The notes under the pieces were generated by a model. It made no database searches. It was not told the DNA's origin and saw nothing but the letters and a program-made list of their open reading frames with translations. The position numbers and the translations under genes are program-made. From assembly GCA_963836205.1 (NCBI GenBank), contig CAWIIV010000014.1, positions 32,001 to 96,000 of the forward strand: DNA of 64,000 nt. The letters run 5' to 3'. This DNA is from an uncultured Acidimicrobiia bacterium (GTDB lineage: Bacteria; Actinomycetota; Acidimicrobiia; Acidimicrobiales; AC-14). Shown in pieces: positions 5,489 to 32,022 of the stretch (positions are counted from its first letter, which is position 1; every line of letters starts with the position of its first letter).

Positions 5489-6658
5489 TCAGCCTAGGCA
5501 GGGTCCGGTGTCTACTGGATCCGCCCGGGCGACCTCCAGCAGGGGCCGTAGCTCCTCGGCGCTGAGGGCGTAGGCGGTCGTGTCCCGGTCGGGGGCGATG
5601 GCGAAGGCCACCCCGACCACGTGGCCGTCCTCGTTTACCAGTCCCGCCCCCGAGTCCCCCGGGGCCAGGTCGGCGGCGAGGATGTAGACGCTGCGGCGGA
5701 CGACGTCGGTGCCGTAGAGGTTCCGTCCCACGGCCCGGACCTGCTGGCGGACCGACGCCGGCGACACCCGGACCTCGGCCTGTCCCTCCGGATGCCCGAA
5801 GACCGCCACCGTGGTGCCCACCGCGCCGTCGGCGATGGAGAGCGGCCGCTGGCCCAGTCCCGGCACCGACAGGAGGGCCAGGTCGCGGTCGGGGTCGAAG
5901 GCGACCGGGGTCGCCGCCAGCCGGGTGCCGTCGGGGCGGACGACGAAGGAGTCGTCCACCCCCGCCACCACGTGGGCGTTGGTCATGACCAGGTCGCGGG
6001 CCACGCTGAAGCCGGACCCGTCCCGCTCCGAGCGGCAGGCGGTGCCCTCCACCTTCACCGTGCTCGCCGTCACCCGGGCGACGGTGGCCGCCGTCAACGG
6101 TGTGGAGGCGGGCGGGGGGCCGGTGTCGAGGGACGGGAGGAGGCCGCCGAAGACCTGGGGGCTGGCCGCGGGCCCGGCCAGGCGGCGGAGGGCCTGGGAC
6201 GCGTTGGGGGGGTCGGGCAGGACGGCGTCGACCACGCGGGCCACCGCCGAGTGCCGGGCCAGGCGGGCGGGCGCCCCGGTGACGTCGGACAGGGCGGGCA
6301 GGACGAGGAGCCACAGCCCGAGCAGGACCACGAACGGCGCCGCCGCCGCCCCCGCCACCCGGTCGAAGGGCAGGTAGGCGCCGAGGGGGAGCTCGGCCCG
6401 GAAGCGGGTGCCCGCCAGCCGGCCCAGGTACTGGCCCCCGTAGCCGACGCCGACGAAGAAGAAGGCGCCGATGATGAGCCGGACGGTGGGGTCGGTGCCG
6501 CCCAGGAAGGTGACCACCGGCGGCACGGCCAGTGTCGCCAGCACCAGGGCCTGGACGAGCAGCACGCAGGATGTCCCCCCCGTGACCAGCCCCAGCCGGT
6601 GGCCGCCCACCATGGAGCTGACCACGACCGCCACCACGGCGAGGTCGAGAGCGTTCAG
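5489..6658 (-). CDS. MarP-like membrane serine protease (CvpA-like TM domain + trypsin-like domain)
   Basis: xNALDL N-terminus, TM helices, TNAHV, DLA, GDSG triad; apparent CTG start overlapping trmI TGA. Confidence 0.85.
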   Translation of the reverse strand: MNALDLAVVAVVVSSMVGGHRLGLVTGGTSCVLLVQALVLATLAVPPVVTFLGGTDPTVRLIIGAFFFVGVGYGGQYLGRLAGTRFRAELPLGAYLPFDRVAGAAAAPFVVLLGLWLLVLPALSDVTGAPARLARHSAVARVVDAVLPDPPNASQALRRLAGPAASPQVFGGLLPSLDTGPPPASTPLTAATVARVTASTVKVEGTACRSERDGSGFSVARDLVMTNAHVVAGVDDSFVVRPDGTRLAATPVAFDPDRDLALLSVPGLGQRPLSIADGAVGTTVAVFGHPEGQAEVRVSPASVRQQVRAVGRNLYGTDVVRRSVYILAADLAPGDSGAGLVNEDGHVVGVAFAIAPDRDTTAYALSAEELRPLLEVARADPVDTGPCLG

Positions 6659-12726: not shown

Positions 12727-12939
12727 CGAAAGACAGTGTAACGCAGCTAGAGCTGGACTGCTACGAGGGCGGTGAGGTGGAGGCCGACGGCGAATGGACA
12801 GCGCCGATGCGGGCGAGAGGAGGCGGGCGCCGGCCACGAGGACACGGTTGTCACGCAGGCCCGTCGGCCGGCGGTCGACCGCGCTGCAGGCGCGGAGCAG
12901 GACAAGGCCAGTGGCGGCGGCGGTCGTACACTTGGGACG

Positions 12940-15900
12940 GTGCAGTTCCGAGTGCTCGGACCCCTCGAGGTGGAGCACGACGGGCGCGCCGTCGACCTCG
13001 GCCGGCCCAAGCAGCGAGCGCTGCTGGCGATGCTCCTGGTCGACGCCAACCACCTGGTGCCGTCCGACCGGCTGGTCGAGGACCTGTGGCCGAGCGACCT
13101 GCCGGCCGACCCCGCGGCCGCCCTCCAGGTGCAGGTGTCGCGCCTGCGGCAGGTGCTGGCCGGCTGCGGATACGACCCCCAGGCCGTCCTCGAGAGCCGC
13201 AAGCCGGGCTACGTGCTGCACGTCGGCGACGACGACCTCGACGCCACCCGGTTCGAACGGCTGGTCGGCCAGGGGCGGCAGGCGATCGCCGCCGGCTCGG
13301 TGGCCGAGGGCGCACGCCTGCTGGGCGAGGCCATCCGGCTGTGGCGGGGCGACCGGGTGCTCGCCGACTTCGCCGGCGAGCCCTTCGCCCGGGAGGAGGC
13401 CACCCGCCTGGAGGAGCTGCGGGTGGCGGCGGCCGAGGACTGGGTGCAGGCCGAGTTGGCCCTCGGCAACCATGCCTCCGTCGTGGGCCAGGCGCGGCGG
13501 CTGGCCGACGCCAACCCGCTCCGGGAGGGGCTGTGGGCGCAGCTGATGCTCGCGCTGTACCGGTCCGACCGCCAGGCAGAGGCGTTGCGGGCCTTCGCCG
13601 GGCTGCGCACGAACCTGGCCGAGGAGTTGGGCATCGACCCGTCCCCCGCCCTCCAACGGCTGGAGGAGATGGTGCTCCTGCAGAAGCCGGAGCTCGACTG
13701 GCGGCCGCCGAGGGAAGCGCGAGGAGAGGACCTCCGCCCGTCGCCCCGACCGCCGTCTGCGCTCGCCGTCGACGACGACGGCTACCCCTTCGTCGGGCGC
13801 CAGGCCGAGCTCGACCGGGTGGGGGCGGCGTGGCAGGCCGCGCTGGTGGCGGGGCCAGGGCTGGTCCTGCTGGGCGGGGAGCCGGGCATCGGGAAGACCC
13901 GTCTGGCCATGGAGCACGCCCGCATCGCCCACCGGGAGGGAGCCGACGTCCTGGTGGGACGCTGCGACGAAGACCTTGCGGTCCCCTACCAACCCTTCGC
14001 CGAAGCGCTGTCCCGCGCCATCCGCCAGGTTCCGCCCGACGAGTTGCCGTCGCTGTTGGGAGGACAGGGCGGCGAGCTCGTCCGCCTCGTCCCCGACCTG
14101 GCCGACCTGGTGCCCGATCTGCCCCGGCCGGTGTCGTCCGACCCCGAGACCGACCGCTTCCGCCTGTTCGACGCCGTGGCCGGGGCCCTCGCCAGGCTCT
14201 CCCGGCGGGCCCCCCTTGTCCTCGTCCTCGACGATCTCCACTGGGCCACCGCGCCGACCCTCCTCCTCCTGCGCCACGTGGTCACCCGGTCGGAGCCCAT
14301 GGCCGTGCTCGCCATCGGCACCTACCGCCACACCGAGGTCGACGACCATCATCCGCTGGCCGAGGTGCTGGGCGAGCCCGGACGCCTACCCCACGTGACC
14401 CGGATCGTGCTCGGCGGCCTCGACGAGGACGCGGTCCACGGCTTCGTGCGGGCAGTCACCGGCCGGGACGAGAGCGCGCCCCTCGCCCGGTCGATACACA
14501 CGGGGACCGCCGGGAACCCGCTGTTCATGCGGGAGATGGTGCGCCACGTGGAGGAGTCGGGCGAGGCCACCGCCCCAACGGAGAGTTTGGACGTCCCCGA
14601 GGGGGTACGCGATGTCGTCCGCCGACGGGTGCACCGGCTGTCGGGCACCACCAACCGCCTGCTGCTGGTGGCGTCGGTGATCGGGTCCGAGTACGACCTC
14701 GCCGTCCTCCAGGGCGCGGCGGGCTTCGACGAGGAGGTCGTGCTGGCGGGCGTGGAGGAGGCGGTGGAGGCCGGGCTGGTGGTCGACATCGCCGGCCCCG
14801 GCCCCGGCCTCCGGCAGCGCTTCACCCACGCCCTGGTGCGGGCCGCCCTCTACGACGGGCTCACCGCCGCCCGGCGGGGCCAGCTCCACCGCCGGGTGGC
14901 GGAGGCGGTGGAGGGGCTCCACCCGGGACGGACCCACGAGCACCTGGCCGAGCTGGCCCACCACTTCTCACGGGCGGCGGCGATGGGCGGCGCCCCCAGG
15001 GCGGTCGCCTACTCGGCCCTGGCCGGGCAGAAGGCGCTGGGCCAGCTGGCCCACGACGACGCCGCCGCCTACTTCCGGCAGGCCCTCGACCTCCTCGACG
15101 CGGTGGAGGTCGATGACCCCGTCGGCCGCCTCCGCCAGCGGTGCGACCTCCTGCTCGCCCTGGGCGAAGCCCAGCGCCGCTGCGGCGCCCCCGCCCACCG
15201 GGCCACCCTGCTGGAGGCGGCGGCCCTGGCCCGCGACCTGGGCGACGCCGAACGGCTGGCCACCGCCGCTCTCGCCAACACCCGCAGCTTCTGGAGCGCG
15301 ACCCGTCAGGTGGACGGGGAGCGAGTCGCCGCCTTCCGGGACGCGCTGGCCGCCCTCGACCCCGGTGACAGCCCGCTGCGCGCCCGCCTCCTGGCCCGGC
15401 TGGCGGTGGAGCTGGTGTACTCGGGCGACGCCCCCGCCGTCCGCGACCTGAGCGACCAGGCCCTGGCCATGGCCCGCCGCCTGGGCGACGGTCCTACCCT
15501 GGCCCAGGTCCTCGTCCCCCGCTACAACACCATCCGGGGTGATCCCGGCACCCTCCCCGAGCGGCTGGCCGACACCGCCGAGCTCCTGGCCCTGGCCGAC
15601 CGGCTGGGTGACCCCGTCCTCCACTGCGAGGCCCACGGTTGGCGGGCGGTGGCGACCATGGAGGCGGCCGACGCCGAGGAGGCGGCGGCCTGCCTCGACG
15701 CCTTCGACCAAACCGCAGCGGCCGTCCACCAACCGACCATGCTCTGGTACGCGGCCTACATGCGGGCCAGCCGGGCGATCCTCGACGGGCGCTTCGACGA
15801 CGCCGAGCGGCTGGCCACCGAGGCCTTCCACCTGGGCCAGGCCGCGGGCCAGCCCGACGCCGACCTGTTCCTGTCGGTGCAACGGCTCCAGATCGCCTTC

Positions 15901-16536
15901 GAGCGGGGCTTGCTCGGGCGGTGGGAGCGGCCGCTGCGCATCGCCCTCACCCGCGATCCCGACTCGTGGTGGTTCCTGCGGTCGTGGCAGGCCCGGTGCG
16001 CGGTGGCGAGGGGCGACGACGCCAAGGCCCAGGCGTTCCTCGACGAGCTGGCCGCCAACCAGTTCGCCGACCTCGCCTTCGAGCCGACCTGGCTGCATAT
16101 CGTCGCCAACTGCGCGGCGGTGGCGGCCCACCTGGCCGACACCGGGCGGGCCGCCCGCCTGGCCGAGCTCATGGCCCCCTACGCCGGGCAGCTGGTGACC
16201 CTCTCGTCACTCGCCTACTGCGGGTCGGTCGACCACTACCTCGGACTGCTGGCCGCCGCCCTCGGCCGCCACCAGGACGCCGACGGGCATTTCGCGTCGG
16301 CCGCCGTCATCCACCAGCAGGTGGGGGCGCCGGCGTGGCTGGCCCGCACCCGCCTGGCGTGGGCCCGCTCGCTGATCGCCGACGGTCGCCCCGCGGGAGC
16401 GCCCCGCCTGCTGGAGGAGGCGGGGGCCACCGCCGACGCTCTCGGACTGGGGTCGGTGGCCCGGGCCGTCGCCGCCGCCCAGGCGGCCCTGGGTTCGTCC
16501 GCCTCCGGACCGGGACGGATGCTGGCCGACCGGTAA
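12940..16536 (+). CDS. AfsR/SARP-type regulator: wHTH-BTAD + AAA_16 STAND ATPase + helical/TPR region
   Basis: QFRVLGPL, PLREGLWAQLMLALYR, GEPGIGKT, LDDLHWA, GNPLF; TACACT upstream of GTG. Confidence 0.9.
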   Translation: MQFRVLGPLEVEHDGRAVDLGRPKQRALLAMLLVDANHLVPSDRLVEDLWPSDLPADPAAALQVQVSRLRQVLAGCGYDPQAVLESRKPGYVLHVGDDDLDATRFERLVGQGRQAIAAGSVAEGARLLGEAIRLWRGDRVLADFAGEPFAREEATRLEELRVAAAEDWVQAELALGNHASVVGQARRLADANPLREGLWAQLMLALYRSDRQAEALRAFAGLRTNLAEELGIDPSPALQRLEEMVLLQKPELDWRPPREARGEDLRPSPRPPSALAVDDDGYPFVGRQAELDRVGAAWQAALVAGPGLVLLGGEPGIGKTRLAMEHARIAHREGADVLVGRCDEDLAVPYQPFAEALSRAIRQVPPDELPSLLGGQGGELVRLVPDLADLVPDLPRPVSSDPETDRFRLFDAVAGALARLSRRAPLVLVLDDLHWATAPTLLLLRHVVTRSEPMAVLAIGTYRHTEVDDHHPLAEVLGEPGRLPHVTRIVLGGLDEDAVHGFVRAVTGRDESAPLARSIHTGTAGNPLFMREMVRHVEESGEATAPTESLDVPEGVRDVVRRRVHRLSGTTNRLLLVASVIGSEYDLAVLQGAAGFDEEVVLAGVEEAVEAGLVVDIAGPGPGLRQRFTHALVRAALYDGLTAARRGQLHRRVAEAVEGLHPGRTHEHLAELAHHFSRAAAMGGAPRAVAYSALAGQKALGQLAHDDAAAYFRQALDLLDAVEVDDPVGRLRQRCDLLLALGEAQRRCGAPAHRATLLEAAALARDLGDAERLATAALANTRSFWSATRQVDGERVAAFRDALAALDPGDSPLRARLLARLAVELVYSGDAPAVRDLSDQALAMARRLGDGPTLAQVLVPRYNTIRGDPGTLPERLADTAELLALADRLGDPVLHCEAHGWRAVATMEAADAEEAAACLDAFDQTAAAVHQPTMLWYAAYMRASRAILDGRFDDAERLATEAFHLGQAAGQPDADLFLSVQRLQIAFERGLLGRWERPLRIALTRDPDSWWFLRSWQARCAVARGDDAKAQAFLDELAANQFADLAFEPTWLHIVANCAAVAAHLADTGRAARLAELMAPYAGQLVTLSSLAYCGSVDHYLGLLAAALGRHQDADGHFASAAVIHQQVGAPAWLARTRLAWARSLIADGRPAGAPRLLEEAGATADALGLGSVARAVAAAQAALGSSASGPGRMLADR

Positions 16537-18759: not shown

Positions 18760-18763
<4 letters not shown>
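18359..18763 (+). CDS. Stand-alone response regulator receiver
   Basis: IRVVLVDD, DYWLPD, T, FVAK; convergent with hybrid kinase; start codon unclear (in-frame ACG at 18359). Confidence 0.8.
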
Positions 18764-21631
<2,868 letters not shown>

Positions 21632-22349: not shown

Positions 22350-22931
22350 CTACTCGGAGGGGCGGGCTCCAGGCAGGTAGTCGCGGAATTCCTTCATCGC
22401 CTTCCACTCGGGCTCCGGTGGCTGATGGCCGGGAGCGGGAGCGAACACGGACAGCTGGTCGAGCATCATGCGGTGGATGTACCTCGGGCAATTGGGGAAC
22501 GCACGCACGACCGTGATGCGGACCACGGCCTGAGCGCCCTCCCACGTCGACAGCAGCGGGTCGGCGTCGGCCACGGACGCTGTCCCATGCACCCGCAGCC
22601 GGTCCGGCTGCTGGAAGTTCACGAACAACAGGGCCACGCGGTCATTGACCACGATGTTGCCGAGCGACCGGAACATGCCGTTGCCGTCGTAGGACGGGAA
22701 GGCGATCGTGCGGCGGTCGAGGCAGCGGACGAAGCCGGGCCGACCGCCCTTGTACGACACGTCGGGCCACCCCTCGTCGTCCGCCGTCGCCAAGAAGAAC
22801 ATGGAGCTCGCCTCGATGAAGGCGACATCCCCGTCGGACAGTTCGGCGTGCACAGTGACCTGTTCCAGCCGGTCGGCGATGCGACGACTGTCGAATCGGT
22901 CCTGAAACTCGCGGTGACCGTCGTTGTACAT
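22350..22931 (-). CDS. Pyridoxamine 5'-phosphate oxidase family FMN-binding protein
   Basis: FFLAT, SYKGGRPGFV, YDGNGMFRSLGN, NCPRYI. Confidence 0.88.
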   Translation of the reverse strand: MYNDGHREFQDRFDSRRIADRLEQVTVHAELSDGDVAFIEASSMFFLATADDEGWPDVSYKGGRPGFVRCLDRRTIAFPSYDGNGMFRSLGNIVVNDRVALLFVNFQQPDRLRVHGTASVADADPLLSTWEGAQAVVRITVVRAFPNCPRYIHRMMLDQLSVFAPAPGHQPPEPEWKAMKEFRDYLPGARPSE

Positions 22932-23762
22932 GGCGCCAACACTGCGCTGCCATCGCGCCGGGCGCAAGGTCCTGCCAGGCCGTAGGAGCGTGAGTTGTGG
23001 CGACCCCGCCATCGTGGGTGTGCGCTCCCGACCGAATCGACACGTAGCAGTCGCCTCGCCATTTCTGGACTCTCATTCGCCAAGCCGGCCGTCCCCGACC
23101 CGACATTGAGGGCGATATCACCCGCAAGCCGCGACGACGTTTTTGCGCGTGATCGGTCGAGCGCCGCGAACTCGTTCCGTGCGCCAGGCTGACCCTGGAT
23201 CCGAGGCTCCCGAGCCCAATCTGCACGGACTGATTGGCGCGAAGGAGGGGCCCAGCATGGATCGGCGGTATCGTCGGCGAGGGTTCATAATGGGTCGGTG
23301 ACCGGCACCCACGACGTCTTCCTGAGCCACAGCGCCGCGGACAAGGAAGTCGTGCGGGACCTTGCCGGGCGGCTGCGAGATCGCGGGCTGCGGGTGTGGT
23401 TTGACGACTGGGAGATCCAGCCGGGGGACTCGATCCCTTCCCGGATCGAGGCCGGACTGGATGGTTCCGCTGTCCTCGTCCTCTGCTTCTCACGGTGGGC
23501 GCTCGCCTCCGACTGGGCGGCGCTGGAAAGCGGAACGTTCCGGTTCCGTGACCCGCTCAACCGAGACCGCCGGTTCATCCCGCTGCGCCTCGACGACGTC
23601 ACCCTGCGCGGTTCGCTGGCCCAGTTCATGGCGATCGACTGGCGAACACCCAACGAGGAGGCGATCGAGCAACTGATCCGTGCCTGCCGGCCCGCCGCCG
23701 CGGCCGTGGCTGCGCCAGCTCAGGACGACGACCCGAAAGCCCCTCGTCTGGCACTCTCCCTC

Positions 23763-25489
23763 GGCCACACCGACCCGGTGTACTGCGTTACTTACCACCC
23801 CGACGGTGCCCACGCCCTCAGCGGCGGCCACGACCGCACGGTGCGGGTGTGGGACCTGGCCACCGGGGTCTGCGAGCGGGTCCTCGAAGGACACACCGGC
23901 TCGGTGAACAGCGTCGCCTACCACCCCGACGGCGCCCACGCCCTCAGCGGCGACATCGACGGCAAGGTGCGGGTGTGGGACCTGGCCACCGGGGCCGGCG
24001 AGCGGGTCCTCGAAGGCCACACCGGCTCGGTGCTCAGCGTCGCCTACCACCCCGACGGCGCCCACGCCCTCACGCGACATCGACGGCAAGGTGCGGGTGT
24101 GGGACCTGGCCACCGGGGTCTGCGAGCGGGTCCTCGAAGGCCACACCGGCCCGGTGAACAGCGTCGCCTGCCACCCCGACGGCGTCCACGCCCTCAGCGG
24201 CGACATCGACGGCACGGTGCGGGTGTGGGACCTGGCCAGCGGGGCCTGCGAGCGGGTCCTCGAAGGACACACCGGCTCGGTGAACAGCGTCGCCTACCAC
24301 CCCGACGGCGCCCACGCCCTCAGCGGCGACATCGACGGCAAGGTGCGGGTGTGGGACCTGGCCACCGGGGCCGGCGAGCGGGTCCTCGAAGGCCACACCG
24401 GCTCGGTGCTCAGCGTCGCCTACCACCCCGACGGCGGCCACGCCCTCAGCGGCGGCCACGACCGCACAGTGAGGGTCTGGGACCTGGCCAGCGGGGCCTG
24501 CGAGCGGGTCCTCGAAGGACACACCGGCCCGGTGGACAGCGTCGCCTACCACCCCGACGGTGCCCACGCCCTCAGCGGCGGCGTCGACCGCACGGTGCGG
24601 GTGTGGAACCTGGCCAGCGGCGCCTGCGAAGGGGTCCTCGAAGGACACACCGACATGGTTTTCTGCGTCGGCTACCACCCCGACGGCGGCCACGCCCTCA
24701 GCGGCGGCGGCGACCGCACGGTGAGGGTGTGGGACCTGGCCAGCGGCGCCTGTGAGCGGGTCCTCGAAGGCCACACCGGCTCGGTGCTCAGCGTCGCCTA
24801 CCACCCCGACGGTGCCCACGCCCTCAGCGGCGGCGACGATCGCACGGTGCGGGTGTGGAACCTGGCCAGCGGCGCCTGTGAGCGGGTCCTCGAAGGACAC
24901 GCCGGCTCGGTGCTCAGCGTCGCCTACCACCCCGACGGCGCACACGCCCTCAGCGGCGGCGTCGACCGCACGGTGCGGGTGTGGAACCTGGCCAGCGGCG
25001 CCTGCGAAGGGGTCCTCGAAGGACACACCGACATGGTTTTCTGCGTCGGCTACCACCCCGACGGCGGCCACGCCCTCAGCGGCGGCGGCGACAACACGGT
25101 GCGGGTGTGGGACCTGGCCAGCGGCGCCTGTGAGCGGGTCCTCGAAGGACACGCCGGCTCGGTGCTCAGCGTCGCCTACCACCCCGACGGCGCCCACGCC
25201 CTCAGCGGCGGCGTCGACCGCACGGTGCGGGTGTGGGACCTGGCGAGCGGCGCCTGTGAGCGGATCCTCGAAGGACACACCGAGTCGGTGCACAACGTCG
25301 CCTATCACCCCGACGGCGCCCGCGCCCTCAGTGGCGGCTCCGACGAAACGGTGCGGGTGTGGGACATGACTGCCGGCGCCTGCGAGCGGGTGCTCGAAGG
25401 CCACAGCGGATGGGTGCACAGCATCGCCTACCACCCAGACGGCAGCACGGTTCTCTCGGCGGCCGGCAATGGCGTTCTGCGGATCTGGC
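23763..25489 (+). repeat. 14 x 126-bp highly similar WD40 coding repeats
   Basis: Repeating ctcgaaggacacaccggc...caccccgacggc...gtgcgggtgtgggacctggcc. Confidence 0.95.
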
Positions 25490-26841
25490 CGGCTGAGCTG
25501 ATCGCTAGCTTCCAGGGCCCCTCGACCAAGTTCGTGACCTACTCAAACGCCAAGGTAGTGCTGGTCGGCGAGAGCCAGGCCGGCAAGAGCGGCCTGGCCA
25601 TGAGGCTGGCCCACGATCGCTGGGAGCACTCGGAGTCCACGGTCGGAGCGTGGGCAACCTGGCTCCCGGTGCGTTCCCCCGCCGGGCCGGGCAATCAGGA
25701 TCTGGATCGGGAGATCTGGTTGTGGGACTTCGGTGGACAGGCTGATCAGCGGCTCATCCACCAGCTGTACCTGGGGGACGCCGCGCTCGCCGTGCTCGTC
25801 TTCGACGGCCAACGCGACGACGTCGTGGCCCGCCTGTGGGACTGGAACCGTGCACTTGCGTCGAGCGGACGCGACTATCCCCGGATCCTCGTGGCGGCCC
25901 GTACCGACATCAACCCGGTGAGGCTGAGCACCGACGAGCTCGAAGAGTTTCGGGACGCAGCCGGCTTCGGCGCCTATGTGGAGACCAGCGCAAAGGACGA
26001 CGTCGGCTGCCACGAGCTTCGGGACGTTGTCCTCGCCGCTATCGACTGGTCGAGGGTCCCGTGGCGGTCGTCGCCCCAAACATTCCGGAGGCTCAAGCAG
26101 GAGATCCTCGCCCTGCGCGACAGCGGACGGGTCCTCACATCGGTCAAGGTCCTGCGCGACTGGCTGGCGGGGCGGGTCGACGACCTCCGGCCCGAGGAGC
26201 TCGACGCCGTAATCGGGCTGCTAGCCGGGCCGGGCGCAGTCATGCCGCTCGACTTCGGCGACTACGTCCTGCTCCAGCCCGAGCTGCTCAACGCCTACGC
26301 CCAGGCCGTCATCCGCAGCTTCCGCGACGACCCCCAGGAGCGGGGCTGCATCCTGGAGGAGCGGGTTCTGGCCGGTGACCTCGCCTATCCGAGCGACTTC
26401 GTCCGTCTGCCGCAGGCGGACGAAGCAATCGTGCTGCGGGCCATGCACAAGCAGCTCGTCGAACGTGCGATCTGTTTGAGGGACCAGGACCCGAAGGGGA
26501 AGCGGCCGACCACGCTCGTGTTCCCCAGCTATTTCCGCCGGGAGCGACCCGACCGTCCCACCCAGCCGATTGCTTTCATGACCTACAGCTTCGACGGATA
26601 CCTCGACGAGGTCTACGCCACGCTCGTCGTCAGGCTCCACCACACCGAGCCCTTCACCAGCGCCGAGTTGTGGCGCAACGCCGCCGACTTCACGACCCTC
26701 GGAGGGAACGAGATCGGGATACGCCTGGTGGCGAAGTCGGACGGTACGGGTGCGCTGATACACCTCCGACAGGGTCCCCCACTCGCTTGAGCAGGGGTCC
26801 CAGCGTGGAGTCGGCAACCCCGACCTCACAGGAGGATTCCG

Positions 26842-28245
26842 ATGGCCCACGTTGGAGGACAGCTTCAAGCGCAGTTCATGGCCCGTATCCGCGGGCGTGA
26901 CCCCGAGCGTTGCCTGGTGGTGCCCGTCGACGTCGGCAAGTCGTCGGCGATGGCGCTCGTCGCCGACCACTACGGCGAGATGGTCGTGGCGCCCTTCGAG
27001 TTCGTCCTCACCGAGACCGGGTTCGCGGTGCTGTCGGGAGCGATCGCCCGGGCCGAGGCGACGCGCTCGGCCGAGGTCGTGCGGGTCGGGGTGGAATCGG
27101 CCGGGCACTACCACCGCACGCTCGTGGCCCGCCTGCGGGCCGGCGGCCACGAGGTCGTCGAGCTCAACCCGGCGGCGGTGAAGGAGGCCCGGTCCCAGCA
27201 GCTGCTGCGCCGCCTCAAGAGCGACGCCCGGGACCTGGGGGCGATGGCCGAGCTGATGATCCGTGGCGCCGGCCGCCCCCCGGCGGTGCGCACCGACGCC
27301 CTGGCCACCCAGGGCGCATGGGTCGCCCACCGCCGGCGCAAGGTGTCGGCCCGGGTGGCGCTGGCCAACCAGGTCATCGGCCAGCTCGACCTGGTCTTCC
27401 CCGGCCTCGACGGCTGCTTCTCCGACCTGCTCGGCGCCCGCGCCGGGCGGGTGATCGTCACCCACATCTGCGACCCCGACCGCGTCCGGCGCCAGGGGAT
27501 CGAGGGCCTGCGTCGCTTCGTGGCCCGACGAGGCGTGACGCTGTCGGGGCCCAAGGCCACCCAGGTTGTCGAGGCGGCCCGGGTGGCGCTGCGCCTGCCA
27601 GCCGCAGAGCGGGCCGTCCTGGGCAGGGTCTTAGCCGCTGACCTGGCTCTTCTCGCCAGCCTCGAGGCCGGGATCGTCGCCGCCGAGGTGTCCCTGGCCG
27701 AGGTCCTGGCGGACACCCCGGCGCGGATACTGACCTCCCTGCCCGGGGTGGCGGTGGTGCGGGCCTCGAACTACGGCGCCGGCATCGGCGACCCGGCCCG
27801 GTTCCCGAACGCGGCCGCCGCCTACCGGGCGGCGGGCCTGGTCCCGACGCTGTACGAGTCGGCCGGGAAATCCCGGTCCCGCCAGCACATCAGCCGGGAA
27901 GGCTCCGTCGAGCTGCGCCAGGCGATCATCGAGCTCGGCCGGGGCCTGGCCCAGCACGAGGCCGACTTCCGCCACTACCGCCGCCGGATCCTCGACTCGG
28001 GCAAGCCGGCCTCGGTGGCGGCCGTCGCCGTCGGCCATCGGGCCCACCGCCTGGCCTTCGCCATGCTGCGCGACCAGTTGCCCTACGACCCGGCCCGATG
28101 GACCGAGTCGGTGGCGGCGGGCATGACCGCCATGGCGAAGACCCGACGGGCCCACCAGAACGACGTGACGTGCCCGCCGCCGGCCACCAGCGTGCCCGAA
28201 GGGGGTGAGGCCGACAACACCACCGCCAGACGCTCTCGGGGCTGA
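26842..28245 (+). CDS. IS110 DEDD recombinase/transposase
   Basis: VDVGK, VESAG, KSDARD (DEDD); SLPGVA and GLVP..YESAG..ISREGS Tnp domain; GGAGG RBS. Confidence 0.95.
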   Translation: MAHVGGQLQAQFMARIRGRDPERCLVVPVDVGKSSAMALVADHYGEMVVAPFEFVLTETGFAVLSGAIARAEATRSAEVVRVGVESAGHYHRTLVARLRAGGHEVVELNPAAVKEARSQQLLRRLKSDARDLGAMAELMIRGAGRPPAVRTDALATQGAWVAHRRRKVSARVALANQVIGQLDLVFPGLDGCFSDLLGARAGRVIVTHICDPDRVRRQGIEGLRRFVARRGVTLSGPKATQVVEAARVALRLPAAERAVLGRVLAADLALLASLEAGIVAAEVSLAEVLADTPARILTSLPGVAVVRASNYGAGIGDPARFPNAAAAYRAAGLVPTLYESAGKSRSRQHISREGSVELRQAIIELGRGLAQHEADFRHYRRRILDSGKPASVAAVAVGHRAHRLAFAMLRDQLPYDPARWTESVAAGMTAMAKTRRAHQNDVTCPPPATSVPEGGEADNTTARRSRG

Positions 28246-28257
28246 AACGCCCCGAGA

Positions 28258-28428
28258 TCGGCGGCGGGGGGCCCGGACCGATGTCGAGTGCGCTACGACG
28301 TCCTTCGGGAACGTCGCTTCTAGCATGACGCCGGGTCCCTCCCACTGAAGCGAGCGCGAACGTGGTTGCCTGACCCGCCCTCGGGCGAGGTCGCGTATGT
28401 CAGCGTGTGCCGCGAGGGAGGCCGCCGA
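28258..28428 (+). ncRNA. Putative bridge RNA in the IS110 3' end
   Basis: Closing stem tcggcggc/gccgccga; target loop gtgcgcta-[cUUCGg hairpin]-tctagc; donor loop ggttgc-[hairpin]-tcagc; guides match target and donor junctions. Confidence 0.8.
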
Positions 28429-28501
28429 ACCGGAAATCACCCCGAACCGGATCGACGCGCCCCTCGACGGACGCCTACTTCACCGCGGCTCCACAAGACT
28501 G

Positions 28502-28522
28502 TTGACAAACCAGACGGTTGCT
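28502..28522 (+). promoter_or_regulatory. -35 half of the IS circle-junction promoter
   Basis: TTGACA at 28502; after circularisation it is followed by exactly 17 nt and then TACACC (26759-26764). Confidence 0.75.
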
Positions 28523-29639
28523 AGATCTCCACTGCGACCCCTCGACCCGCGGGGCTACCAGGTGCTCTTCGCCAAGTACGTCCAGGACCACCTCGACGGC
28601 AACGCCAGACGCGTGGCGCGCCTGCGTACCTACATCTGCCCCACCTGTGGTACGCCGGTCGAGAACCGGGCGACGGCGCTCAAGCGCCTACTCGACAACA
28701 AGCCTGACATCGCTTGCCAGGATTGCGAGGCCCGCATTCCGCTGTGGGACGAGATCGAGCAGCTGCTCGCGAGCGACGACCTGCGGTCACAAGTCGCCGC
28801 CCTGCGGGCCGGGTCGAGCAGCGTCCTGGACAACGAGAGCCGCGGGCGAATGCTCGTCGGCGACGTCTACTCGACCGTCGCCCGAGCGGGGCAGATCGCC
28901 CGCGAGGTCACCATCGGCGACCACGGCATCGATGTCGAGGTCGAGTTCAAGACCGACCTCGGCCAGGCCAGCGGGAGAAAGGTCTACTTACAGCTCAAGT
29001 CGGGCGACTCTCACCTCCGGGATCGTGAGCGCGACGAACACTCGCGTTTTCCGGATCCACAAACCCCGCCACGCCGACTACTGGGCTGACCAGGCATTCC
29101 CCGTGATGCTCCTCATCGGCGACAGGTCTGGCACCATCGAGTGGATGGAGATCCGCGAGCTCCTGCGCCGACAGCGGGAAACCGGTGCTTGGCCAGCAAA
29201 AGAGATCGCCTTCGTCGGCACGCGCTTCGACGTGATGAGCGTCCGCCGGTGGCGCGACGAAGCGCTCCGAACCCCATGAAACTGCCCCACATGGATGCCG
29301 GAGCTCTCCAGGCGACCCTGACGTAGGGACCGCACAGGTGCCGATGTCGGATTGGCCCGTCCGATGCCTGACCCGTCCGGCATTCGTTACAGAGTGGGTC
29401 GCCTACCGGGGACCGATTCAACATTCCGGATCCTGACGAGGGCCCGGTTCGTGGCCCCCGGTTGGTATCGCTCGGTGGGCGACGTTCCGATCGGCTACAC
29501 CGGCAGTCCCGCCGGACCACGGCACCTTGTCGTCGCCTGAGCTGATCCATCCACCCGACCGGGACAATCGATCATGCCCCCCTGCCCAGGGGATTCTCAA
29601 GCAGAGATCTGCGAGAGCTCCTCGGCTCGCGGCGGGGCC

Positions 29640-30550: not shown

Positions 30551-32022
30551 ATGCCAGAACATGCTGTAGTGATCGCGGGAGGTGGCCCGACCGGGCTCAT
30601 GTTGGGGGCCGAGTTGACGCTGGCGGGGATCGACGTCGTCATCGTCGAACGGCGTGCCAGCCAGGAGCTCGACGGCTCGCGAGCCGGGGGACTGCACGCC
30701 CGCACCATCGAGGTGCTCGATCAGCGTGGCGTCGCCGAACGATTCCTCTCGGCGGGGAAGGTCCATCCATTCGTGGGCTACGCCGGGACCTTTCTGGACA
30801 TCAGCGACTTCCCCACCCGCCACAACTACATCCTCGGCCTCTGGCAGAGCCACTTCGAGCGCATCCTGGCCGGCTGGGTCGAGGAGCTCGGGGTTCCGAT
30901 CCTTCGCCAGCTGCGAGGTGGTGGGCTTCGCCCAGGACGACACCGGCGTCGATGTCGAGCTGTCCGGCGACACGTCGCTGCGGGCGGAGTACCTCGTCGG
31001 GTGCGACGGAGGACGCAGCCTGGTCCGCAAGGCGGCCGGCATCGACTTCCCGGGGTGGGACCCGACGACCAGCTACATGATCGCCGAGGTCGAGATGGAC
31101 GAGAAGCCAGAGGTCGGTATGCGCCCCGAGGGTGGTGGCCTCGGTCCCGTCAACCCCGAAACGGGTGGAGGGCCGTACCGGGTCGTCCTGCTCGAGAAGG
31201 ATGTCGAACACACCCGCGAGCCCACCCTCCAGGACCTCAGCGAGACGCTCATCGCCGCCTACGGGACGGACTTCGGGGTGCACAGCCCCACCTGGATCTC
31301 CCGATTCACCGACATGACCCGGCAGGCGGCGTCCTACCGCGAGGGACGGGTGCTGCTCGCCGGCGACGCCGCCCACATCCATGGCCCGCAAGGTGGCCAG
31401 GGCCTCAACACGGGCGTGCAGGATGCCGTGAACCTCGGATGGAAGCTGGCCCAGGTGGTCAACCGGACGTCACCCGAAAGCCTCCTGGACACCTACCACG
31501 CCGAACGGCACCCGGTCGGGGCCCGGGTGTTGCACAACACGATGGCGCCAGGTCGCGCTCAGCCGCATCGACGAGCGCAGCCGGGCCCTCCGCGACACCA
31601 TGATGGAGCAGCTGAGCATGGACGAGCCCCGCAGGCGCATCGCGGGGATGATCTCCGGTCTCGACATCCACTACGACCTCGGAGAGGGGCACCCGCTGCT
31701 CGGGCGGCGCATGCCCGACCTCGACCTGCGCACCCCGGATGGCCCCACCCGGGTGTTCACCCTGCTGCACGACGCCCGGCCCGTGCTCCTCAACCTCGGA
31801 GAGCCCGGCGGTTTCGACATCTCTCCGTGGGCGGATCGAGTCCGTTCGGTCGACGCCAGCCACGATGGCGGGTGGGAGCTCCCGGTCCTGGGCGAGGTCG
31901 CTGCTCCACCGGCCGTGTTGATCCGACCCGACGGGTACGTCGCCTGGGCAGGGGACCTCACGGACCCAGAGCTGCCGCAAGCCCTTGTTGCCTGGTTCGG
32001 AGCGGCCGCTCCGGCTGCCTGA
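30551..32022 (+). CDS. FAD-dependent monooxygenase (PheA/TfdB/Rox-like), frameshifted ~30910 and ~31550
   Basis: GGGPTG, GCDGGRS, GDAAHIHGPQGGQGLNTG, LIRPDGYVAW across three frames. Confidence 0.88.

Follow-up and report, generated by a model that had tools for sequence, protein, structure and literature searches.

Prokaryotic proteins in which an AP-GTPase (Roc) is followed by a COR domain have been predicted to act against invaders, with leucine-rich repeats (LRRs) at the N-terminus and one of at least 24 alternative domains, TIR among them, at the C-terminus (Kaur, Iyer, Burroughs and Aravind, eLife 2021; PMC8195603), and AP-GTPases with COR have also been placed in ternary systems of a type linked to multicellular habit (Kaur et al., 2020; PMC7159879). 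Moreover, the DUF4365 (DREN) domain was shown experimentally to be an indiscriminate nuclease in SPARDA, where the D41A/Q60A/K62A mutant is dead, and a figure legend of that work presents WP_012162657.1 as a fusion of DREN with TIR, P-loop NTPase and WD40 (Prostova et al., 2023; 10.1101/2023.06.08.544223). In this context, we analysed a gene at 23298-29279 (+) of a 64,000-nt stretch, hereafter the window, with a GC content of about 70%, from the draft genome of an uncultured Acidimicrobiia bacterium; exact look-up identified WP_012162657.1 as a protein of 1409 aa, the homologue of this gene in Acaryochloris marina.

The gene consists of four open pieces in differing frames, jointly colinear with intact homologues of 1386-1458 aa, and the order of its domains is TIR, 14 WD40 repeats, Roc GTPase, COR, CxxC..CxxC zinc ribbon and DUF4365 (DREN) PD-(D/E)xK nuclease. 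It is thus a broken member of a catalogued and widespread kind for which we found no experimental study. An earlier note, written from the DNA letters, had not recognised a characterised system here, which stands for experiment, as judged by our literature search, and falls for description, the kind and the exact architecture being already in print in the cited texts (PMC8195603; 10.1101/2023.06.08.544223). In our view, intact members are probably self-contained, GTPase-switched sensors that cause abortive infection.

The family resembles the AP-GTPase counter-invader proteins, as the cited text describes them, in having Roc strictly followed by COR, rapidly evolving repeats on the N-terminal side, a single polypeptide, a predicted immune role and a variable effector after COR, which is DREN in the window gene and TIR, a class III cyclase, a cyclase with TIR, or DREN with AAA_21 in relatives that share its core; in contrast, their sensor is an LRR, a place taken in the window gene by a 14-blade WD40 array, and the window gene adds a TIR at the extreme N-terminus and ends in a zinc ribbon and DREN (PMC8195603). 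With the DREN of SPARDA (PDB 9qcc, 9jsb, 9vx6) it shares the family by Pfam, profile and fold, as well as the D..D/E..QxK residues, whereas Argonaute and APAZ are absent, and activation would proceed by GTPase and propeller instead of guide-target pairing; the WP_012162657.1 fusion is merely drawn as an example in the text cited, and is not studied there (10.1101/2023.06.08.544223).

The predicted Roc-COR tandem fold is shared with Roco proteins (Chlorobium tepidum Roco, Methanosarcina barkeri Roco2, LRRK1 and LRRK2), and in LRRK2, too, Roc-COR is accompanied by a WD40 domain and an enzymatic output; unlike these proteins, to which sequence identity is 14-20%, the present family carries WD40 N-terminal and not C-terminal to Roc, and has TIR and nuclease outputs instead of a kinase. 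STAND receptors (Avs, bNACHT) and plant TIR-NLRs join an effector, a nucleotide switch and a repeat sensor within a single chain, and assembly activates their effectors, which are TIR or nuclease domains. The window gene follows the same three-part logic, with the difference that its switch is a small Ras-like GTPase with COR and not a STAND AAA+ ATPase; it is built like an NLR immune receptor in which a Roco (Roc-COR) GTPase replaces the STAND ATPase as switch.

Domain architecture and candidate effectors

The features of the gene, all on the forward strand, are as follows.

23286-23291 (+): -10-like hexamer CATAAT, read from the DNA, 6 nt before the GTG at 23298
23298-23690 (+): TIR domain, AbTIR/PdTIR-like, with putative catalytic Glu77 in SDWAALE (Pfam TIR_2)
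23757-25518 (+): WD40 array, 14 units of 126 bp (Pfam WD40, E 8e-129)
25552-26035 (+): Roc GTPase, with G1 GESQAGKS, G3 WDFGGQ, G4 RTD and G5 ETSAK
26036-26752 (+): COR domain (COR-A and most of COR-B), assigned from the predicted structure of a homologue and cut near its end by an insertion sequence (IS)
28526-28556 (+): gene resuming after the IS with the last COR-B strand, LHCDPSTRG (DNA against homologues)
28637-28726 (+): zinc ribbon CPTC...CQDC (translation)
28874-29276 (+): DUF4365/DREN PD-(D/E)xK domain, DHGIDVEVEF ... LQLK (Pfam DUF4365), split by a frame break

The intact homologue P0018 (1401 aa) aligned to the window by tblastn in four frame segments, with aa 1-256 at 23298-24074, aa 260-1160 at 24082-26781, aa 1157-1327 at 28538-29050 and aa 1325-1395 at 29043-29255. 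In Pfam, TIR_2 matched aa 7-127 of the open reading frame (ORF) starting at 23298 (E 3.2e-27), the Roc family PF08477 gave E 1.6e-16 and Ras E 4.4e-14, and DUF4365 gave E 2.5e-9 for its N-terminal half, with the C-terminal half, in another frame, at E 0.009, below the Pfam cut-off; the zinc-ribbon region had weak NCBIfam zinc-binding matches. Pfam detected no STAND (NACHT/NB-ARC) ATPase module, and Roc is the sole NTPase of the protein. Furthermore, no PADLOC Avs or NLR model matched outside the TIR, the TIR-NLR model covering the TIR part alone (E 0.0013). The protein is not a SPARDA component, as it stops after DREN and has no conserved neighbour among 47 loci. A scan of 22900-23500 for two-hexamer sigma-70 promoters returned no sites, and a leaderless transcript from the CATAAT hexamer is possible.

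The region after the GTPase was assigned by structure. An AlphaFold2 model of the homologue P0012, which is 70% identical to the window gene, was built from Roc to the C-terminus on a 99-sequence alignment, with a predicted local distance difference test score (pLDDT) of 90.1 and a predicted template modelling score of 0.85. In Foldseek, it matched Chlorobium tepidum Roco (CtRoco) 6hlu (E 2.9e-19, 510 columns) and 3dpu (E 1.5e-18, template modelling score 0.63 normalised on 3dpu), the alignments to these two covering 504-510 columns, LRRK1 8e05 (E 6e-19), many LRRK2 entries and MbRoco2 4wnr, the Roc-COR matches ranging from E 3e-19 to 1e-13 and the top 29 rows all being CtRoco, MbRoco2, LRRK1 or LRRK2. 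Since the best matches of the model are Roco and LRRK structures, the region is assigned as a true COR, forming with the GTPase a predicted Roc-COR tandem.

The C-terminal part is likewise predicted to adopt a nuclease fold. For the homologue L027, the C-terminal 274 aa were modelled separately (pLDDT 84.5); this model had SPARDA DREN-APAZ chains as all of its 12 best Foldseek rows (E 5.9e-7 to 4.8e-4), and aligned with Hjc resolvases over residues 129-274 at Z 9.9-8.7 (VIA-align). A profile of the same region matched the PDB chain 9qbq_A, a 'DUF4365 domain-containing protein', at E 1.2e-4, and the DREN-APAZ chain 9jsb_D at E 0.037. A two-copy complex prediction of the DREN domain (residues 120-274) scored 0.04 against a mark of 0.42, a result that neither supports nor opposes dimerisation.

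Taken together, each domain named in the earlier note (TIR, WD40, Roc, a COR-like region, ribbon and DUF4365) was recovered by Pfam, translation or structure at the coordinates that it had given, and all the motifs that it had quoted (SDWAALE, GESQAGKS, WDFGGQ, RTD, ETSAK, CPTC..CQDC and GID..E..QLK) are present. What it had called COR-like proved to be a true COR by the modelled structure of the 70%-identical homologue, though sequence models are silent there, and the nuclease fold that it had proposed for the C-terminal part was upheld, the top structural matches being SPARDA DREN chains, followed by Hjc.

The homologues conserve the predicted catalytic residues of all three enzymatic domains, TIR, Roc and DREN. 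Glu77 aligns with the Glu of PdTIR 3h16, of AbTIR 7uwg and 8g83, and of 7uxr, these being the four printed PDB phmmer alignments that reach the Glu, while the matches also included 4lzp; the active site of 3h16 lies at E94 (PMC11297309). By alignment, the TIR is nearest to the NADase-type bacterial TIRs AbTIR and PdTIR. Among 119 homologues examined, 82 had a TIR match and 80 of them retain the Glu, the other 37 being mostly N-terminally truncated gene calls. Across 99 aligned sequences, the invariant positions comprise the P-loop GK, DFGGQ, the G4 Asp and TSA, along with the DREN residues D, G, D, E and E; QLK (QxK) is at least 90% conserved, and the same holds for three of the four zinc-ribbon Cys positions (C445, C448 and C471 of P0012).

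Outputs are swapped within the family. Among 146 representatives drawn from an exhaustive search, 55 carry TIR, the full zinc ribbon and DREN, and others match the profile through the zinc ribbon alone; in Pfam, five such C-terminal parts contained TIR (two cases), a class III cyclase, a cyclase with TIR, or DREN followed by an AAA_21/AAA_15 ATPase. The relatives with swapped outputs that share the Roc-COR-zinc-ribbon core are P0248, P0254, P0256, P0266 and P0131. The position after COR and zinc ribbon thus behaves as an exchangeable output slot, which supports DREN as an effector.

These data bear on whether both enzyme domains act as effectors. It seems doubtful that only one does, whether with the TIR as a scaffold or a maker of a cyclic ADP-ribose-type signal, or with zinc ribbon and DREN as a nucleic-acid sensor and the TIR as sole killer. 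Such an arrangement would suit the closeness of the TIR to AbTIR-type enzymes, which make cyclic ADP-ribose isomers, and the loss of the Glu in two of the 82 members (V in P0025, Q in P0029); in addition, the zinc ribbon precedes DREN, nuclease folds can act as DNA binders, and some relatives bear, besides the N-terminal TIR that they retain, another one at the C-terminus. Against it stand the invariance of the DREN D/E residues together with the conserved QxK, the retention of the TIR Glu in nearly all homologues that have a TIR match, and the lack, among the 47 loci, of a conserved downstream receptor gene for a TIR-made signal. Joint NAD depletion and DNA cleavage would remain the mechanism of the intact protein in our reading.

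WD40 repeats and proposed mode of action

The sensor candidate is an array of repeats that are highly alike at the DNA level: units 2-12 are 84-100% identical, units 2 and 5 being identical and units 8 and 11 sharing 98%. In the protein, variation clusters at unit positions 6, 7, 9 and 10, right after GH, and in a second cluster at positions 24, 25, 27 and 28, in the SGxxDxT turn, which we take to be the D-A and B-C loops on the top face of the WD40 propeller. The 14 units are enough for two seven-bladed propellers. In other members of the family the units are likewise much conserved, their pairwise identity averaging 0.85 for the Acaryochloris protein and 0.73 for P0041, and the pattern as a whole would fit a recognition surface diversified by repeat recombination. 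In fungal HET-E/NWD genes, repeat recombination creates new recognition surfaces, and fungal incompatibility NLRs show a similar WD40 pattern of conserved repeats with hypervariable positions.

From the domains we infer WD40 ligand sensing, GTP-controlled assembly, NADase and DNase activity, and an immune role for intact members. A double WD40 propeller, whose blades would be kept near-identical by recombination except at the top-face loop positions, would bind an invader-derived ligand, and binding would alter Roc-COR both in its nucleotide state and in its assembly as dimer or oligomer. The resulting assembly would gather the N-terminal TIRs, for NAD+ cleavage, and the C-terminal DREN domains, for indiscriminate DNA cutting, and the infected cell would die or arrest, as in abortive infection.

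A more specific version of this proposal, which we hold tentatively and consider possible at best, is that intact members are true GTPase-switched innate immune receptors, whose WD40 units recombine to give new recognition surfaces and whose Roc-COR assembly fires both TIR and DREN, the frameshifts in the WD40 arrays of this genome and of its nearest relative being by-products or on/off switches of repeat shuffling. To our knowledge, a defined function has been established for no bacterial Roco GTPase; human LRRK2 ties a Roc-COR switch to disease and immunity. If the specific version were true, these Roco proteins would be the first in prokaryotes to have a defined biological role, and the Roc-COR-WD40 combination of the LRRK2 type would be of immune origin. 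A family in which Roc-COR is coupled to two known killing domains would offer a tractable system for the study of how a Roc-COR GTPase controls effectors, and could represent a new class of single-gene anti-phage system.

Frame breaks and the IS110 insertion

The interruptions of the gene, with the transposase carried by the inserted element, are listed below.

24072-24077 (+): frame break 1, 2 nt lost in WD40 unit 3 ('acgcgac' against 'agcggcgac' in sister units)
26753-28525 (+): IS110-family insertion sequence, 1773 bp (identity limits of the three genomic copies)
26842-28245 (+): IS110 transposase gene, 467 aa (DEDD_Tnp_IS110, Transposase_20)
28547-28552 (+): frame break 2, 1 nt lost in a G run (DNA against homologues)
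29038-29043 (+): frame break 3, 1 extra base inside the DREN domain (DNA)

The IS spans exactly 26753-28525, without a visible target duplication. The genome contains two more copies, one on contig C15 and one on C6, with 100% identity that begins and ends at exactly 26753 and 28525, and with unrelated flanks. The presence of three identical 1773-bp copies with unrelated flanks indicates that the element was recently active. Its transposase matched DEDD_Tnp_IS110 (E 8.9e-24) and Transposase_20 (E 4.1e-14) in Pfam, and the NCBIfam model transpos_IS110 at 145.6 bits (cut-off 140). With a DEDD transposase and Transposase_20, identical copies and no target duplication, the element belongs to the IS110 family. 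The other copies are located at 102889-104665 of contig C15 of this genome (G000) and at 609034-610806 of contig C6, where two fragments of a related element (611108-611482 and 607649-607806), 86-87% identical, adjoin the full copy.

At frame break 1 the spacing of the WD40 units is 124 bp instead of 126, and the tblastn alignment switches frame there. When 26752 is joined to 28526, a third frame results, the homologue-like LHCDP reading beginning at 28527, and one further small indel is therefore probable at the IS junction. The IS separates the zinc ribbon and the nuclease from the remainder of the gene, and this insertion by itself suffices to inactivate it. Split by the IS110 element and bearing at least three small frame breaks, the window copy reads as a pseudogene; therefore, nothing would be triggered by it in this genome. 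Being broken, it mainly documents that genes of this sort are acquired, pass from lineage to lineage and are lost again, and the pattern of gain and discarding, in a gene hit by an active IS110 element, fits a costly conflict gene.

The small frameshifts could nevertheless be sequencing errors. It is unlikely, though worth weighing, that the IS insertion alone is real, the small frameshifts having arisen by sequencing or assembly error in a repetitive gene rich in G+C, intact until a very recent IS110 hop. The three identical IS copies point to recent activity of the element; one break lies in a G run and one inside near-identical 126-bp repeats; the FAD monooxygenase gene 1.3 kb downstream is likewise split over two frames; the WD40 array in the copy of the nearest relative (G016) has a single +1 shift of its own; and the genome is a 25-contig draft with a completeness of 88.6%. 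Conversely, two of the three small breaks lie outside homopolymers, rpoB of the same genome reads as a single open frame of 1233 aa, and exact removal of the IS fails to restore a homologue-like frame. Among public sequencing runs, six soil metagenomes contained small shares of the sequence only, and none of the resulting contigs bridges a frameshift site; one read-derived contig stops at 28525 and continues into the flank of the C15 copy of the IS, in agreement with the IS boundary.

Two observations on neighbouring and related sequences may be added here. The downstream FAD-binding monooxygenase (about 30563-31538, +) spans two frames, with Pfam positions 3-120 in one and 112-348 in the other, and either is itself a pseudogene or reflects indel errors of the assembly. 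In the nearest related copy (L102, on contig C9 of G016), an extra G at about 6400-6415, in 'cagcgcggtcctc' within the WD40 array, places the TIR-WD40 part and the Roc-to-DREN part in different frames, a break that is independent of those in the window.

Distribution and genomic surroundings

An exhaustive search of 1.84 billion representatives returned 4906 proteins at E<=1e-3, of which 1590 reached E<=1e-10 and 834 reached E<=1e-30; of the 8000 candidates scored in a word-indexed search with the Roc-COR piece, 2279 proteins had E<=1e-3. Full-length forms fall into two size groups, one of about 1120-1155 aa with 7 blades and one of about 1370-1460 aa with 14 blades. Database forms of 640-750 aa were considered as natural Roc-COR-DREN proteins and rejected as fragment gene calls, because nearly all of them begin inside a WD40 repeat or Roc.

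Among species-representative genomes, 138 stretches encode relatives, and 80 loci were kept, 78 of them at 49-60% identity and two closer (76% and 66%). These loci belong to Acidobacteriota (most), Actinomycetota, Verrucomicrobiota, Planctomycetota, Proteobacteria (Bradyrhizobium, Magnetospirillum and Undibacterium), Cyanobacteria (Acaryochloris marina), Bacteroidota and others, with 50-55% identity across Acidobacteriota, Actinomycetota, Cyanobacteria, Proteobacteria, Verrucomicrobiota and Planctomycetota. Among kin, the gene was present in 2 of 60 related genomes (none of 7 in the same genus, 2 of 36 in the same family), the nearest copy, in G016, being 79% identical. The family is widespread over phyla yet patchy among close relatives. 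An ORF of at least 1095 aa was found at 35 of the 47 loci with full flanks, the remaining 12 having shorter ORFs or none that spans the gene, as called by a crude ORF caller. One Thermoanaerobaculaceae chromosome (record OY970330.1) carries two gene copies about 2.6 Mb apart (L037 and L068), one of which gives a 907-aa ORF only.

No conserved neighbour emerged from 375 flanking ORFs of these 47 loci, the largest cluster comprising 4 loci that share the same neighbouring genes; the protein stands alone, in line with the candidate single-gene protein of the earlier note. A census of the nearest two ORFs per side, from which five neighbour-sharing loci and ORFs of more than 1000 aa were dropped, comprised 148 ORFs at 37 loci.

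Several observations weigh against an antiviral, dual-effector reading of the family. The neighbours in the window are a hybrid histidine kinase, a response regulator, a STAS protein, a PNPOx protein, an FAD monooxygenase and a CMD protein, and this neighbourhood is no defence island. The 148 neighbour ORFs hit 175 Pfam families, none of them in more than two proteins and with no control set to compare, and many look metabolic or housekeeping (RecA, LGT, PPK2, FtsX/MacB); scattered defence matches occurred in the census, for which there is no baseline, namely PtuA/PtuB (one), PDC-S71, PDC-M37B, DolB and a few others in PADLOC, and Abi_alpha in Pfam; the association with defence islands is weak or inconclusive, and we count the census on neither side. 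At the level of the protein, the G4 motif reads RTD/GRVD and not NKxD, searches of Pfam and PDB by sequence gave no match between Roc and the zinc ribbon, with the Pfam COR models silent, and the TIR Glu is missing from the two homologues mentioned above. In addition, a full-text literature search found no experimental study of the TIR-WD40-Roc-COR-DREN architecture, and a search of viral contigs with three peptide patterns only gave 10 pattern matches and no relative, a result that is uninformative on phage targeting.

The weakest alternative, that the family is not antiviral at all and serves self/non-self recognition or developmental cell death or signalling, like fungal HET-E/NWD WD40 proteins, or acts as a general stress-signalling Roco, would account for WD40 repeats with high internal conservation and few hypervariable positions, for mostly ordinary-looking neighbourhoods, for the tie of such systems to multicellular habit (Kaur et al., 2020; PMC7159879) and for relatives that end in a class III cyclase, a signalling output, but it is improbable given that TIR and an indiscriminate nuclease are killing and not signalling outputs, that the distribution is very patchy and crosses phyla, and that the family occurs in unicellular lineages, e.g., Bradyrhizobium and Undibacterium. 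Abortive infection by intact members is the reading that we retain.

Around the locus, the adjoining PNPOx-like gene (22353-23012, -) is present in 6 of 7 same-genus genomes, at 78-93% protein identity. In three same-genus regions that were fetched, only this PNPOx gene aligns to the window, and no empty site or island boundary could be defined from them; since nothing around the PNPOx gene aligns, the locus lies in a variable region. Further upstream, a 1261-aa regulator (12751-16533, +, stop-to-stop frame) combines Trans_reg_C, BTAD and AAA_16 in a SARP/AfsR-like architecture, and the hybrid histidine kinase (18763-21507, -) carries two receiver domains and an Hpt domain.

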